Virus record (IMG/VR): IMGVR_UViG_3300040856_003274 | Span: 32,001-96,000 of that record | From: a virus | Reading direction: 5' to 3' (one strand) | Length of the DNA: 64,000 nt | Part shown: in pieces, positions 25,177 through 28,382 of the stretch | How positions within the stretch are numbered: position 1 is the stretch's first letter | Layout of the letters: each line of letters starts with the position of its first letter | Made by a program: the position numbers and the translations under genes | The notes under the pieces: model-generated | Databases searched by the model: none | The model's input: the letters and a program-made list of their open reading frames with translations, nothing else | What the model was told of the DNA's origin: nothing

Positions 25177-25236
25177 TCCAGGCAGAAAGCCCCCCGCCGT
25201 AGCAATCCTAAGATCACTAGGGCGGGGGGCTTTCCT
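25177..25236 (-). terminator. Island-terminal hairpin (terminator-like)
   Basis: GAAAGCCCCCCGCC...GGCGGGGGGCTTTC stem right after the 25238 stop. Confidence 0.7.
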
Positions 25237-25237
25237 T

Positions 25238-25480
25238 TTAATCGTCTGACTCTTCCTCGTCCTCACCATCGTGGTCGTGGTCGTTCCACTCTTCGAGTGT
25301 ATCGACCATGCTACAGCCACAGCCACCCATGTAGCCGTGGTCGTTGTCGAGGATCATTTGCAGTTGCGCGACCCAATACGCGTTAGCGCGGGCTTGCGCG
25401 TGGTCAGGTACGAGGCTCGTAGCCTCTGAAGCGAGCTCTCTCATCTCTTGGATGATTTGCTCAAAACGATATGCGCTCAT
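25238..25480 (-). CDS. Small acidic hypothetical protein (island 1)
   Basis: AGGAG RBS following a hairpin element. Confidence 0.7.
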   Translation of the reverse strand: MSAYRFEQIIQEMRELASEATSLVPDHAQARANAYWVAQLQMILDNDHGYMGGCGCSMVDTLEEWNDHDHDGEDEEESDD

Positions 25481-25504
25481 AGTAGTCTCCTATGTGTGAG
25501 CTTT

Positions 25505-25593
25505 TAAGATTAAGGGAGTCTCTAGGACTCCCGACACCTTATCCCCCCACCGTCTGATCTGCACTAGGGCATCTCAGAGGGTGAGGGTTTAAG
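25505..25593 (-). repeat. Intercistronic double-hairpin element
   Basis: CCCTCACC-CTCTGAGATGCCCTAGTGCAGATCAGA-CGGTGGGGG...GGTGTCGGGAGTCCTAGAGACTCCCTTAATCTTAA; near-identical to 63018-63107. Confidence 0.85.
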
Positions 25594-25626
25594 ATTAGGG
25601 TGAGGGTTTCCTCGTAGAGGAAAAGG

Positions 25627-26010
25627 TTAAGGCTGTGTCGCCAACCTAACCTTGTCGATCTCTACGAGTATGGAAAAGCCTTCCTCAGCGATCTCCTCAA
25701 CGCTCTTGACTTGCTTGAGCGCGAGGTCTTCACGCTCAAAAGTCACCGTATCTGAAGATTTCGTGACTTTATAACCGACACAGAGCGCACGAACGCGCCC
25801 CATTACGGTTGCGCTCGCCCCGTTCCAACAGTCACCCTTGAAGGTGACTTTGAGTCCACCTTTAAGGGGCTCAATCACCGCCAAACGGCATTGGTAACAG
25901 TTGACGTAGATGACCTTATCAAGAGGTAAAACCTCTAAGTTGCCTTTCGCAAGGGAACCTGAGGTTTTACCCAAGATGTGTCTCCACATCTCTTTTTCCA
26001 CTTTTCGCAT
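25627..26010 (-). CDS. Hypothetical protein (island 1)
   Basis: AAGGAG RBS following a hairpin element. Confidence 0.7.
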   Translation of the reverse strand: MRKVEKEMWRHILGKTSGSLAKGNLEVLPLDKVIYVNCYQCRLAVIEPLKGGLKVTFKGDCWNGASATVMGRVRALCVGYKVTKSSDTVTFEREDLALKQVKSVEEIAEEGFSILVEIDKVRLATQP

Positions 26011-26028
26011 TTGATCTCCTTAAATGCT

Positions 26029-26121
26029 TTAAGATTAAGGGAGTCTCTAGGACTCCCGACACCTTATCCCCCCACCGCCCAACCTGCTTAGAGCAGATTA
26101 GAGGGTGAGGGTTAAGGTGTT
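26029..26121 (-). repeat. Intercistronic double-hairpin element
   Basis: ACACCTTAACCCTCACC...GGTGGGGGGATAAGGTGT-CGGGAGTCCTAGAGACTCCC-TTAATCTTAA. Confidence 0.85.
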
Positions 26122-26160
26122 TTAGACTCGGTAGCGGGCGCGGGTTAGAGGAGGTGCGTT

Positions 26161-26679
26161 TTACTTAACTTCCTTCACCCATAGGTTACCATCGCGAAGG
26201 TAACCTCGAATTTGAAAAAAATCCGAGGTTACCTTCACTTGGTACGTCCCCCTCTTGGTGAGTTGCTCACCTGGAGGAAGATCCTTCCTCACCATGTGCA
26301 AGACTGTCCCCCCTCGCGGAGTAACAAGCCTTTCACACATCTCTGCTATATCGGAAGCGATAGCTAATGTTGTTGTGTTCAAAACGTAGGTGCTGAACAC
26401 AATCTCAAACGAGTTTACAGGGAGCTTGTTAGAGACTCCCTCCCACCCACTCACATCATCTTCCCCGTTGAACGGGTCATACGCGTAAACGCGATGACCC
26501 ATCTTGCGGAGCGCATCAGCATGGCGACCATGCCCTGCGCCGAAGTCCAAGATGTACATACTGTCATCATAGTCTCCGAAAAACTCTAACAGCTCTTTAT
26601 TGGGCTTCGCATTTTTCATTGCGGTCTTGGCTGATGCCGCTTCAGAGTACAACTCCGAGTCCGTTTTTTGCTCGCTCAT
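26161..26679 (-). CDS. Class I SAM-dependent methyltransferase (island 1)
   Basis: ILDFGAGHGR, YAYDPF, FEIVFSTYVLN. Confidence 0.8.
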   Translation of the reverse strand: MSEQKTDSELYSEAASAKTAMKNAKPNKELLEFFGDYDDSMYILDFGAGHGRHADALRKMGHRVYAYDPFNGEDDVSGWEGVSNKLPVNSFEIVFSTYVLNTTTLAIASDIAEMCERLVTPRGGTVLHMVRKDLPPGEQLTKRGTYQVKVTSDFFQIRGYLRDGNLWVKEVK

Positions 26680-26770
26680 AGTAACTCCTATTAATGTGAG
26701 CGTTTTAGATTAAGGGAGTCACTAGGACTCCCGAAAACGATGGGGAGCGACCGCCCCCCTTTACTAACAT

Positions 26771-26794
26771 TACGGATTACTTTTTTCCCCCGAC
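26771..26794 (-). promoter_or_regulatory. 24-bp conserved promoter-like box
   Basis: Exact GTCGGGGGAAAAAAGTAATCCGTA; its final TA begins a TAnnnT hexamer, then a GGG hairpin, RBS and gene. Confidence 0.8.
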
Positions 26795-26911
26795 ATTACA
26801 GTTTCTCGCCACGGCCCACGCGCATACGCGCACGCGTGTACATGTGTGCGTCATGTACGCGAACGCACGCCAGCGACATGACGCTCAAGCGCGAGCGCGA
26901 GCCCCCCACGA

Positions 26912-26954
26912 CGTATAGAATTCAGACAGGCAATCCGTTTTAGAATTCTATACG
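26912..26954. promoter_or_regulatory. Central inverted-repeat hub
   Basis: CGTATAGAATT-N21-AATTCTATACG. Confidence 0.8.
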
Positions 26955-26995
26955 CGGTATAGCAGGCGCACCTACGCGTACACGCGTGTGGTTTT

Positions 26996-27019
26996 GTCGG
27001 GGGAAAAAAGTAATCCGTA
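26996..27019 (+). promoter_or_regulatory. 24-bp conserved promoter-like box
   Basis: Exact copy, divergent from the 26771 copy. Confidence 0.8.
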
Positions 27020-27093
27020 ATGTTAGTAAGGGGAGGCACTGAGCTTCCCATAACTTTAATGGCTCTCTGAGCCCATTTATGAAAGGTATTCGC

Positions 27094-28140
27094 ATGACAG
27101 CGACACCGAAAAAACTCAAATACACAGACTTTATCCCCGCTCTCAAAGCGGTCTTGCCTACTCAGGCAACCAAGGCCAAAGAGGTTCGACCTCTTGTCTA
27201 CAAGGCTATGGGACTCCCGCAGACATTTGAGACAGACGCGCTTTACGCGTCAACCGTCTCAAATGCTTTCCTCCGATTAAAAAAATCGGGGGAGGCGCTC
27301 GCGCCTAAGGCGGGATGGTGGGTGAAAGCTGGTGGCGAACCTAAGGTTAAGACTGAGCCTAAGGTTAAGCCTAAGGTTAAGACTGAGCCTAAGGTTACTG
27401 AGCCTTCTGATCTCGTCGCGCTCTTGCAAGCTCAGATTGAAGATGGCCTGAAACATATGCAGGCTCTACAGGCGCAACTCGCGCAGGTACAGCTCGCACA
27501 GCTCGCCCAGGCTCAACAAGCTCAACAGTCCGTCTCTGAGCCTGAGCCTGAGCCCGTCTCTGAGCCTGAGCCTGAGCCTGAGCCTGAGCCTAAGCCTGAG
27601 CCTAAGCCTGAGCCTAAGCCTGAGCCTAAGCCTGAGCCTGAGCCTAAGCCTGAGCCTGAGCCTGAGCCTAAGCCTGAGCCTAAGCCTAAGCCTGTCTCTG
27701 AGCCTGAGCCCGTCGAGGCGCTCAAAATCGTTAGTGCGTATGAGACTAACAAAGACCACTTTGATAGCCTCATCCTGTCTCAATCCTCTTGCTTCGGCAT
27801 CGCACACGGCAAAGGTTGTTCGGCTTGCCCCGCGCAGGTCGAGTGCAAAGAGTTAAGCCTTACCAAGCTCGTCGAGCTTGCTCAGGCAAAGCTGATTGAG
27901 CCTGAGCCTGAGCCTGAGCCTGAGCACTCAAAGATCACGTTTCCTGCCGATAAGGTAGGGGATGTTGAGGCATCTCTCATGAGTATGGAAGGGTTCGACT
28001 GTAGCCACTGCGGAGAGGCGTTAGAGGTGGGCAAGCCTGTCCTCTACAGCGCCTCAACCTCAGATGGTTATGTGCATCCACACTGTGTCAATATGCCTGC
28101 CTCACTAGAGGCGCAAGTGTTGGCGCTGTTGCGGAGCTGA
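27094..28140 (+). CDS. Protein with PE/PK linker and two Cys/His (zinc-binding-like) clusters
   Basis: Basic N-domain, Q-rich coil, (PE/PK)n from CCTGAG/CCTAAG repeats, CFG...[10 protein letters not shown] and CSHC...HPHC; ATG 27094 follows AAAGGT. Confidence 0.75.
27535..27710 (+). repeat. Coding 6-bp tandem repeat CCTRAG
   Basis: About 28 units of CCTGAG/CCTAAG with interruptions. Confidence 0.9.
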
Positions 28141-28183
28141 GAGCGGAGCTGAGCTGAGCTAAGGTCGCGTGTGTTTGAGTGAG

Positions 28184-28275
28184 ACACCTTAACCCTCACC
28201 TTCTGAGATGTCCTAGACAGATCAGACGGTGAGGGCTTGAGGTGTCGGGAGTCCTAGAGACTCCCTTAATCTTAG
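28184..28275 (+). repeat. Double-hairpin element
   Basis: Same family; inner stem is TGT-CCTAG-ACA versus TGC-CCTAGT-GCA in other copies. Confidence 0.85.
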
Positions 28276-28314
28276 CTGAGGCGCGTGCTTACGATTACTG
28301 AACCTCCCACGAAA

Positions 28315-28382
28315 ACAGAAAGCCCCTCACCCTCTAATCTGCTCTAAGCAGGTCAGAGCGGTGAGGGGCTTTCTGTCGGGAC
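28315..28382 (+). terminator. Island-terminal hairpin ending TTTCTGTCGGGA
   Basis: ACAGAAAGCCCCTCACC...GGTGAGGGGCTTTCTGT stem. Confidence 0.75.

Follow-up and report, generated by a model that had tools for sequence, protein, structure and literature searches.

Four gene islands of a contractile-tailed phage share one kit of putative transcription signals, with variable cargo joined at kit elements

The stretch of DNA analysed here, hereafter the window, is 64 kb long and comprises bases 32001-96000 of a linear IMG/VR virus record of 168,266 bp (G000), with a completeness of about 40% according to CheckV. The record represents a contractile-tailed phage, with a tail-sheath domain at the end of an 1894-amino-acid (aa) protein and a baseplate-J protein. 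Four islands of genes in the window are built with a single regulatory kit: a 24-bp box, a hub centred on a palindrome, alternating purine-pyrimidine (RY) tracts and long hairpins. These islands had been proposed in an earlier note on this DNA, and every part claimed there was found in its place. The proposed layout (terminal hairpin, genes, box, RY tract, hub, and the same parts in mirror order) held for the box, the hub and the hairpins; however, the hub of island 3 has no long RY run, and the right arm of this island has two tandem boxes. Island 2 is a half version, as had been described, with one hub half-site, one box and one gene. The comparison set consisted of G001 (72 kb, IMG/VR), LR745208.1 (485 kb, GenBank) and five marine metagenome contigs, including L047, L048, L049 and L051. 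Island 1 contains the following features, given in window coordinates.

25175..25245, minus strand: left terminal hairpin, terminator-like in both directions, with stem AAAGCCCCCCGCC/GGCGGGGGGCTTT and the diverged end motif GCCTGGAGT (-43.2 kcal/mol, z -7.3)
25238..25480, minus strand: cargo gene, 80-aa ORFan; homolog in LR745208.1 and 152-aa variant in L049
25503..25600, minus strand: inter-cassette unit of long hairpin, GTCGGG-N17-TAATCT (spacer hairpin GGGAGTC-CTAGA-GACTCCC), leader and ribosome-binding site
25627..26010, minus strand: cargo gene, 127-aa ORFan, whose sole and weak lead is Kyano_Gp96
26028..26125, minus strand: inter-cassette unit of long hairpin and hp_box
26161..26679, minus strand: cargo gene, class I S-adenosylmethionine-dependent methyltransferase, 172 aa; slot empty in L048
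26703..26759, minus strand: left-arm leader with 5' hairpin GGGGGGCGGTCGCTCCCC, followed by the hp_box-like unit TTCGGGAGTCCTAGTGACTCCCTTAATCT
26767..26794, minus strand: 24-bp box with TAATGT (-10-like), putative leftward promoter
26817..26851, no strand: 35-nt alternating purine-pyrimidine tract, Z-DNA-prone
26912..26954, no strand: hub palindrome with 11-bp arms and an oriented 21-bp spacer, cAGACAggcAATCcgTTTtag
26973..26990, no strand: 18-nt RY tract
26996..27023, plus strand: 24-bp box with TAATGT, putative rightward promoter
27030..27074, plus strand: right-arm leader with 5' hairpin GGGAGGC-ACTGA-GCTTCCC and second hairpin GGCTC-TCT-GAGCC
27079..28140, plus strand: cargo gene, Cys-cluster protein with PE/PK linkers; likely start ATG at 27094, giving 348 aa; 343-aa homolog in L048
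28179..28274, plus strand: inter-cassette unit with an empty slot (no gene behind it); a 144-aa gene occupies this place in L048 and L051
28310..28383, plus strand: right terminal hairpin with GTCGGGACT (-49.2 kcal/mol, z -8.7)

The box GTCGGGGGAAAAAAGTAATCCGTA is present in eight perfect copies, while 0.01 copies are expected in shuffled sequences. When the whole record was scanned for the kit, a check suggested by the earlier note, all eight boxes, the three hubs and the half-site lay in the islands of the window, and none was found elsewhere in the 168,266 bp. The boxes are located at 26771-26794(-), 26996-27019(+), 33480-33503(+), 43081-43104(-), 43356-43379(+), 43462-43485(+), 62395-62418(-) and 62625-62648(+). 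Box pairs face outward around the hub palindrome CGTATAGAATT-N21-AATTCTATACG (26912-26954, 43168-43210 and 62541-62583), while island 2 has a single half-site (33408-33418) and one box. The hub spacer is polar, reading sAGACA-N3-AATC-N3-TTG. The earlier note gives a mirrored layout around the hub; the boxes do face outward in pairs, but the hub is asymmetric. From half-site to box there are 84 nt on one arm (72 nt in island 2, 106 nt in island 3), whereas the other arm spans about 160-188 nt. Judged from coordinates, this asymmetric geometry is kept in G000 and its relatives, and the half-sites are kept in every relative examined. The record has seven alternating purine-pyrimidine runs of at least 18 nt, and six of them belong to the hubs of islands 1, 2 and 4, where by our own estimate about 0.6 would occur by chance; the hub of island 3 has GC-rich palindromes instead. 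The island 4 RY tract (62440-62530) is a 20-nt tandem repeat whose unit and copy number differ between G000 and G001, as in a microsatellite. Both G001 boxes carry one extra G, a concerted change.

Could the hub, with its 35-bp inverted box arms, RY tracts and palindrome, be primarily a replication origin or another DNA-level element, for instance a transcription-activated or cruciform origin, with the outward promoters secondary? The presence of several palindrome copies with a conserved, oriented loop (AGACA-N3-AATC) alongside supercoil-sensitive tracts would suit such a role, as would the conservation of the half-sites. However, island 2 combines a single half-site with a single box and gene, as expected if every promoter has its own site, the 84-nt geometry is set relative to the box and not to an AT-rich unwinding element, and no replication genes were identified beside the hubs among the scanned flanking proteins. 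We therefore regard an origin as very unlikely. The inverted arms also recall a miniature inverted-repeat transposable element, a reading that was rejected: no target-site duplication is present, the flanks themselves consist of inverted hairpins, and half a unit is sufficient in island 2.

The other three islands contain the following features.

33408..33503, plus strand: island 2, half kit with hub half-site, RY runs 33428-33440 and 33444-33464, and box 33480-33503
33581..33961, plus strand: island 2, cargo gene, 126-aa ORFan
34012..34085, plus strand: island 2, terminal hairpin with GTCGGGAGT
40796..40869, minus strand: island 3, left terminal hairpin
40910..43006, minus strand: island 3, cargo gene, vWA protein, CobT-like, phrog_1576
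43081..43485, no strand: island 3, control region with box(-) 43081-43104, hub 43168-43210 and tandem boxes(+) 43356-43379 and 43462-43485
43568..44617, plus strand: island 3, cargo gene, AAA_5 ATPase, CobS/MoxR-like, phrog_249
44656..44729, plus strand: island 3, right terminal hairpin
61080..61205, minus strand: island 4, left end with terminal hairpin and second long hairpin, no gene between them; a 77-aa cassette lies here in G001
61231..62337, minus strand: island 4, left arm with 124-aa gene 61963-62337, inter-cassette unit 61861-61956 and 194-aa gene 61231-61815
62395..62648, no strand: island 4, control region with box(-), 20-nt tandem RY repeat 62440-62530, hub 62541-62583 and box(+)
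62720..63598, plus strand: island 4, right arm with 92-aa gene, inter-cassette unit 63011-63106, 118-aa gene 63149-63505 and terminal hairpin 63525-63598

Overall, the cargo consists of a class I methyltransferase, a CobS/CobT-like AAA+/vWA pair, a Cys-rich protein with PE/PK linkers, and ORFans; most of it belongs to no family. Searches of the ESM Atlas and of PDB sequences with the cargo returned only low-complexity matches or weak leads. None of these genes is recognisable as a host-takeover function, and the immediate-early takeover role given to the islands in the earlier note is hypothetical.

A TAnnnT hexamer follows all eight boxes at a fixed offset (in the alignment of the eight, TAATGT four times, TAGTGT twice, and TAACCT and TAGAGT once each), and the GTCGGG within the box sits 16 nt upstream of it. 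TAATGT is also found at all three box copies read on L048 and L051. A hairpin starting with GGG lies 6-9 nt past the hexamer, and its stem covaries (GGGGGGC/GCTCCCC, GGGAGGC/GCTTCCC, GGGGGGA/TCTTCCC); after it come another small hairpin, in many cases GGCTC-TCT-GAGCC, and then a Shine-Dalgarno sequence and the start codon. This layout of box and hexamer is predicted to be a two-element promoter with an unorthodox -35 element. The inter-cassette units have a related organisation: GTCGGG, then 17 nt holding the small hairpin GGGAGTC-CTAGA-GACTCCC, then TAATCT or TAACCT; an A6 tract is also present in the units. GTCGGG copies that precede a gene have one of these two hexamers 17 nt downstream, whereas terminal copies, which face convergent genes, keep GTCGGGAGT and have no hexamer. 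The hexamer is thus tied to the downstream gene and not to the end motif of the hairpin. A general TAATC(Y)(K)TA promoter core was also considered and dropped, as it did not extend beyond the boxes. By eye, the sigma-54, extracytoplasmic function (ECF) sigma, Bacteroidota-type and IHF consensus sequences were fitted to the box and hub spacer, and all were ruled out by wrong spacing.

A second promoter-like class was noticed upstream of three non-island genes. It consists of an A7-8 tract, TGGCT, 15-16 nt and TAGTGTA, and is located at window positions 39321-39347 and 59975-60001 and at genome positions 14815-14843 (window -17185). TAGTGTA is a -10-like element common to this class and to the island boxes.

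The nearest GenBank relative, LR745208.1, is an unannotated uncultured phage whose structural proteins are 25-70% identical to those of G000; from 20-64 kb of the window it keeps only the island 1 80-aa gene and phoH. It has a promoter-like family of its own, in about 29 copies of cGATTTCnCTAAAAA-N14-GTGCCGATAGGGT-(a/t)TTGAGGA-ATG lying 5-15 nt before start codons and mostly in the first 160 kb (loci L037-L046; for example at record positions 1629, 12971, 15318, 33107, 146352 and 349755). Because one of these copies precedes the homolog of the 80-aa gene although the box is absent, a dedicated promoter before small accessory genes appears to be conserved in function, while its sequence seems lineage-specific. 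The reverse complement of the upstream half of this motif, TTTTTAG(G/T/C)GAAATC, resembles the TTAGGGAA core of a 7-kb array in the window (46-53 kb), and one conserved DNA-binding protein might read both. A neighbouring array motif, TTGACRTTAGGGAAYRG, gave only single, chance-like matches when searched for in relatives.

The long hairpins, which the earlier note placed at island ends, are present there and also between genes, and they form two classes that differ at the stem base. The end motif GTCGGGA[GC]T closes eleven of the long hairpins, and two further copies are diverged; all lie within the islands, in the sense of island transcription. The inter-gene hairpins are about 70 nt long, end in GTCGGGAGT and are usually fused to a GTCGGG-N17-TAATCT unit. 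In the internal class, the stem base is ACACCTTAA/TTGAGGTGT, followed by a small hairpin and TTAATCTTA; the stem has about 27 bp and no U-rich 3' side. In the terminal class, the stem base is ACAGAAAG/CTTTCTGT. Given this difference, the appearance of a bidirectional intrinsic terminator is limited to the terminal hairpins.

Twelve hairpin copies were folded, giving energies of -35.6 to -49.2 kcal/mol and z values of -3.3 to -8.7. A model of 26 pairs was then fitted to 19 copies, those of G001 included: 83% of the cells were paired, and 13 pairs showed compensatory changes. None of 500 shuffles reached the observed number of paired cells, the number of compensatory cells or the covariation score, and the 26-pair model stood far above slid controls. 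The sense RNA was more stable than the antisense RNA in 16 of the 19 copies (mean -39.6 versus -35.2 kcal/mol, p = 5e-4) and was richer in G-U pairs. The stability of the sense strand and its additional G-U pairs point to selection on the transcript.

We searched for relatives in which the cargo could be compared. G001 is the sole close IMG/VR relative, colinear with G000 and 90-95% identical over 70 kb. Scans for the exact 24-bp box found this one relative among viral contigs and no match among metagenome contigs and genome contigs, and the hub pattern led to the same single relative. Island DNA was also compared with GenBank phages at near and distant levels, and nothing relevant was found; locus searches guided by the AAA protein and by the DndB-like flank protein led to nothing, or to G001 only. 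Relatives of the flank gene in Logan and ENA were 89%, 64% and 55% identical. A metagenome scan with the hairpin unit yielded the five marine contigs, which are 80-87% identical to island flanks.

The cargo is not fixed across these relatives. At syntenic islands, which the earlier note had named as the place to look, identical flank genes adjoin different cargo, and the breakpoints lie where kit elements begin or end. The claim that modular cassettes are exchanged through shared non-coding parts is supported by the extra cassettes and divergent alleles of G001 and by the differing cargo of L047, L048, L049 and L051. Between G000 and G001 the flanks are 90-95% identical but island 4 only 73%. 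Within island 4, windows of 60 positions have 55-57 matches over the hub and boxes (kit parts being about 92-95% conserved) and 24-50 over coding sequence. Protein identity is 51% and 52% for the hub-proximal genes, 81% and 85% for the distal genes, and 97% for the DndB-like flank protein next to the island. G001 has two extra cassettes in island 4, one of 77 aa at the left end and one of 167 aa at the right end. The junction of the right one lies within the repeated hairpin-GTCGGGA unit, and one G001 indel junction lies outside GTCGGGA. The 194-aa gene of island 4 (window 61231-61815) is split in G001 into reading frames of 120 aa and 89 aa (L034, about 68200-68560), by a frameshift or a sequencing error.

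The gene orders in G000 and in three of the marine contigs are given below, with T for the terminal hairpin and genes named by protein length.

G000, island 1: left flank / T <- 80 <- 127 <- methyltransferase <- box / hub / box -> 353 -> empty unit -> T / right flank
L048: right flank / T <- 144 <- 125 <- empty slot <- box / hub / box -> 343 -> unit -> truncated 80-like gene
L051: hub / box -> 103 -> unit -> 144 -> T / right flank
L047: 103 -> unit -> 194 -> T / island-4 flank

The 103-aa reading frame of L051, which would give 98 aa when read from its likely start, shares 48% identity with the 92-aa protein encoded in island 4 of G000. A homolog of this island 4 gene stands beside the island 1 flank in L051 and beside the island 4 flank in L047. 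The 152-aa gene of L049 matches the 80-aa gene in its first 66 residues only. For the 144-aa, 77-aa and 167-aa genes, no homolog exists in any part of the 168-kb record. L048 and L051 are 99.7% identical over 896 bp and split at the 5' edge of a long hairpin, while L047 and L051 are 98.5% identical over 339 bp and split just before the ribosome-binding site of the next gene. Breakpoints at opposite edges of one unit fit homologous exchange and argue against a fixed site-specific cut.

These breakpoints bear on the possibility that the hairpin and GTCGGGAGT units are sites of a dedicated site-specific recombination system (compare integron attC sites and the hairpins of IS200/IS605 and REP/RAYT), with the hub as a platform for cassette capture and expression. 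The layout is integron-like, in that a promoter is followed by single-gene cassettes, each with an imperfect covarying hairpin and a conserved motif on its 3' side; cassettes are gained and lost singly at units, and empty units are left at 28179-28274 and in L048. However, the point of exchange is the left edge of the unit in L048 and L051 but the right edge in L047 and L051, and one G001 junction falls outside GTCGGGA altogether. The G-U pairs and the greater stability of the sense strand suggest a function at the RNA level, and no recombinase was noticed among the scanned proteins near the islands, although the record was not searched for recombinase families. A site-specific system is, in our view, highly improbable.

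It could also be argued that the kit is real but that the apparent shuffling is mostly a short-read assembly artefact at repeats, with cargo essentially fixed and its divergence due to fast point mutation. The kit units are 100-130 nt long, near-identical to one another and found in either orientation. Flipping the segment between two inverted units of a G000-like order gives the orders seen in L048 and L047, and L051 joins an island-4-like hub to the island 1 flank exactly at a unit. Mis-joining, however, cannot create gene content such as the three genes without a homolog in the record; the methyltransferase is missing from L048 within an otherwise contiguous arm, the C-terminal half of the 80-aa gene is different in L049, and the long contigs G000 and G001 differ by indels and by protein alleles of 51-52% identity. 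The differences in gene content and those between G000 and G001 cannot be assembly artefacts, and we consider it improbable that the shuffling is mostly of this origin.

On balance, we consider it probable that the four islands are hyperplastic accessory-gene islands built on composite transcription signals resembling the promoter-early stem-loops (PeSLs) of T4-type phages, and that these signals double as recombination points. Each hub would provide two outward promoters, with the box contributing GTCGGG at -35 and an invariant 16-nt spacer to a TAnnnT of the TA(A/G)TGT type, and transcripts would start at the G-rich 5' hairpin. Further genes would be reached through the long RNA hairpin, acting as an attenuator or as a transcript-stabilising end, fused to a weaker look-alike promoter (GTCGGG-N17-TAATCT). 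At the island borders, the U-rich version of the hairpin would terminate transcription from both sides. The central palindrome may be a protein-binding operator or enhancer common to both arms. In the twin-domain model, negative supercoiling arises between divergent promoters; the Z-DNA-prone tracts and the palindrome would be located where divergent transcription accumulates negative supercoils, and on this model the hub elements may respond to supercoiling. Homologous recombination between the 100-130-nt units, repeated directly and inverted within and between islands, would delete, insert, replace or invert cassettes. In this scheme, our inferences concern the activity of the promoters and terminators, the factor that reads the box, what the hub does and how the units recombine.

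Several points weigh against this explanation. A sigma-70 consensus scan found no sigma-70-type promoter in the hubs, and the putative -35 element GTCGGG is unlike any sigma-70 consensus. An invariant 24-bp block that includes the spacer is less usual in sigma promoters than in activator sites or the promoters of single-subunit polymerases, and the 60% of the genome that is missing could encode a phage polymerase or sigma factor. LR745208.1 is distant (25-70% protein identity) and has no 24-bp box. Only a handful of relatives were found, and some of the rearrangements in L047, L048 and L051 could be assembly chimeras at the 100-130-nt repeats.

An alternative that is possible but unlikely is that the box is the promoter of a phage single-subunit RNA polymerase (T7-like, or a diverged N4- or crAss-like virion enzyme), with a start at the purine after ...CCGTA, and that the internal hairpins of about 27 bp are RNase III-type sites at which polycistronic transcripts would be cut into stable monocistronic mRNAs. 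Beyond the invariance of the block, a purine comes first after the box in 8/8 copies and in the copies of relatives, an AT-rich part precedes a specific part within the block, an order also seen in T7-type promoters, and the LR745208.1 promoter family ends in ...CGATA/GGGT, which resembles T7-type start sites. The internal hairpins, with long near-perfect stems and small internal loops, resemble RNase III substrates more than typical terminators, and they lack a U-rich 3' side. However, the fixed-offset TAnnnT and the common TAGTGTA fit a sigma-type -10 element. Canonical T7-type RNA polymerase (PF00940), beta subunit and sigma-70 region 2 were not found in the 168-kb record or in LR745208.1, while the same PF00940 search detected T7's own gene. 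A 3450-aa protein, considered as a possible virion enzyme, matched no Pfam or PHROG family and no sequence of a solved structure, so that an N4-like virion polymerase is unsupported by the Pfam, PHROG and PDB sequence searches. We favour a reading of the box by host RNA polymerase with a phage-supplied factor or sigma, or possibly with a host factor, because the sigma-70 scan was empty, no canonical polymerase was found and the 3450-aa protein was unmatched. The reading frame of this protein lies in the tail module (genome 101499-111851; L011:5499-15851, minus strand) and has a counterpart in LR745208.1 with 29% identity across about 3770 residues.

The closest known system is that of the PeSLs, described in the T4-type phages RB49/phi1, T4/PST and KVP40/nt-1 (Arbiol et al. 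2010, PMC2839356; Comeau et al. 2014, PMC4122927). Each PeSL combines an early promoter with a stem-loop and is placed before an ORFan in a hyperplastic region, with the stem-loop between -35 and -10 or just after -10, often as poly-G followed by poly-C (PMC2839356). Recombination between PeSLs explains indels and replacements between close relatives (PMC2839356; PMC4122927). Demonstrated promoter and terminator activity and excised mini-circles are also among the traits of this class. This analogy, drawn in the earlier note, fits well, with three of the four testable defining features found here. Small composite units of promoter and stem-loop precede ORFans in hyperplastic regions, all kit copies lying within the four islands. 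The stem-loop occupies the corresponding places, as GGGAGTC-CTAGA-GACTCCC in the internal N17 spacer and as GGGGGGC...GCTCCCC just past the box hexamer. Indels and replacements are bounded by units (G000 versus G001; L047, L048 and L051), although some contig joins may be assembly errors. The fourth feature differs: PeSLs have a sigma-70 consensus (-35 TTGACA, -10 TATAAT, AT-rich upstream), in place of which the islands have the non-consensus invariant box with GTCGGG. Also new relative to PeSLs are the additional RNA hairpin of about 27 bp before each unit, the bidirectional hub with its palindrome and Z-DNA-prone RY tracts, and the phage lineage, in which no T4-type capsid gene was detected (G000 and LR745208.1, in a search without a positive control).

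Other systems resemble the kit in part. The T7 early operon is one long transcription unit with RNase III sites between its genes. The kit likewise has a promoter cluster followed by genes that are split by long imperfect hairpins, which would leave stabilising 3' hairpins, and its predicted transcripts start with a GGG stem-loop; it differs in being divergent and cassette-like with a putative promoter per gene, and no T7-type polymerase was found in the record, which is about 40% complete. The RNase III analogy is possible for the internal hairpins. Integron cassette arrays have a Pc promoter, attC hairpins and an integrase. The islands share with them the promoter platform and the single-gene cassettes with covarying, motif-bearing hairpins, gained and lost one at a time, but here the crossover points are not fixed, the arrays run both ways from the hub, and the hairpins behave as sense-strand RNA structures. 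T4 middle promoters combine a MotA box at -30 with a sigma-70 -10 element and depend on sigma appropriation by AsiA. In phiEco32, gp36-dependent promoters have AATGTA at about -11.5 (PMC12276001). The box is comparable to both as a mechanistic analogy only: the -10 element looks normal (TAATGT or TAGTGT in the islands), and an upstream element specific to the phage replaces the host -35, but this upstream element is far longer here and invariant, and no homolog of MotA, AsiA or gp36 has been identified.

A bolder version of the proposal seems unlikely to us, namely that the kit is a self-contained platform of an undescribed kind for bidirectional expression and gene capture, in which an unknown or virion-delivered factor reads the box, the hub is a supercoil-driven switch, and the inverted units flip the centre and move cassettes without a recombinase. 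If this were true, the platform would be functionally a recombinase-free integron of huge phages. How huge phages acquire, express and exchange their hundreds of ORFans is poorly understood. Here, outside T4-like phages, one compact kit would both organise the expression of accessory genes and mark the points at which they are swapped. Natural marine relatives provide the comparison: the cargo differs between the 168-kb and 72-kb contigs, which are 90-95% identical, and possibly between short contigs that are 98-99.7% identical. The box and the hairpin unit may be used as metagenome probes for variable cargo, possibly including anti-defence or host-modifying genes. The box is a candidate target of a transcription factor or polymerase, and the hub is a natural test case for Z-DNA and cruciform elements between divergent promoters.

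Further observations concern non-coding sequence in and around the islands. Rfam and tRNA scans of the 64-kb window gave no match. In island 3, the two tandem boxes are separated by about 80 nt (window 43380-43461) that contain a hairpin of their own, AGCGGGTAG-CTGA-CCTACCGCT, but no open reading frame; this stretch may give rise to a short non-coding transcript or be the remnant of a lost cassette. Two tandem arrays flank the right terminal hairpin of the same island: (GAGACGCTGACT)x4 before it (44618-44660) and (CCTAACCTTAAGC)x4 after it (44730-44790), the latter followed by another hairpin, ccccttgc...gcaagggg. The intergenic sequence at window 21465-21541 has repeated CAAATTGTTTTCAAA and CAAATTAATTTGGG words in a palindromic arrangement. 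At genome 17811-17950 (window -14189 to -14050), TTGACA and TATGAT lie 35 nt apart, and the spacer between them is a hairpin, GTCGGGAGA...TCTCCCGAC; this region has the only intergenic GTCGGGAG-type sites outside the islands.

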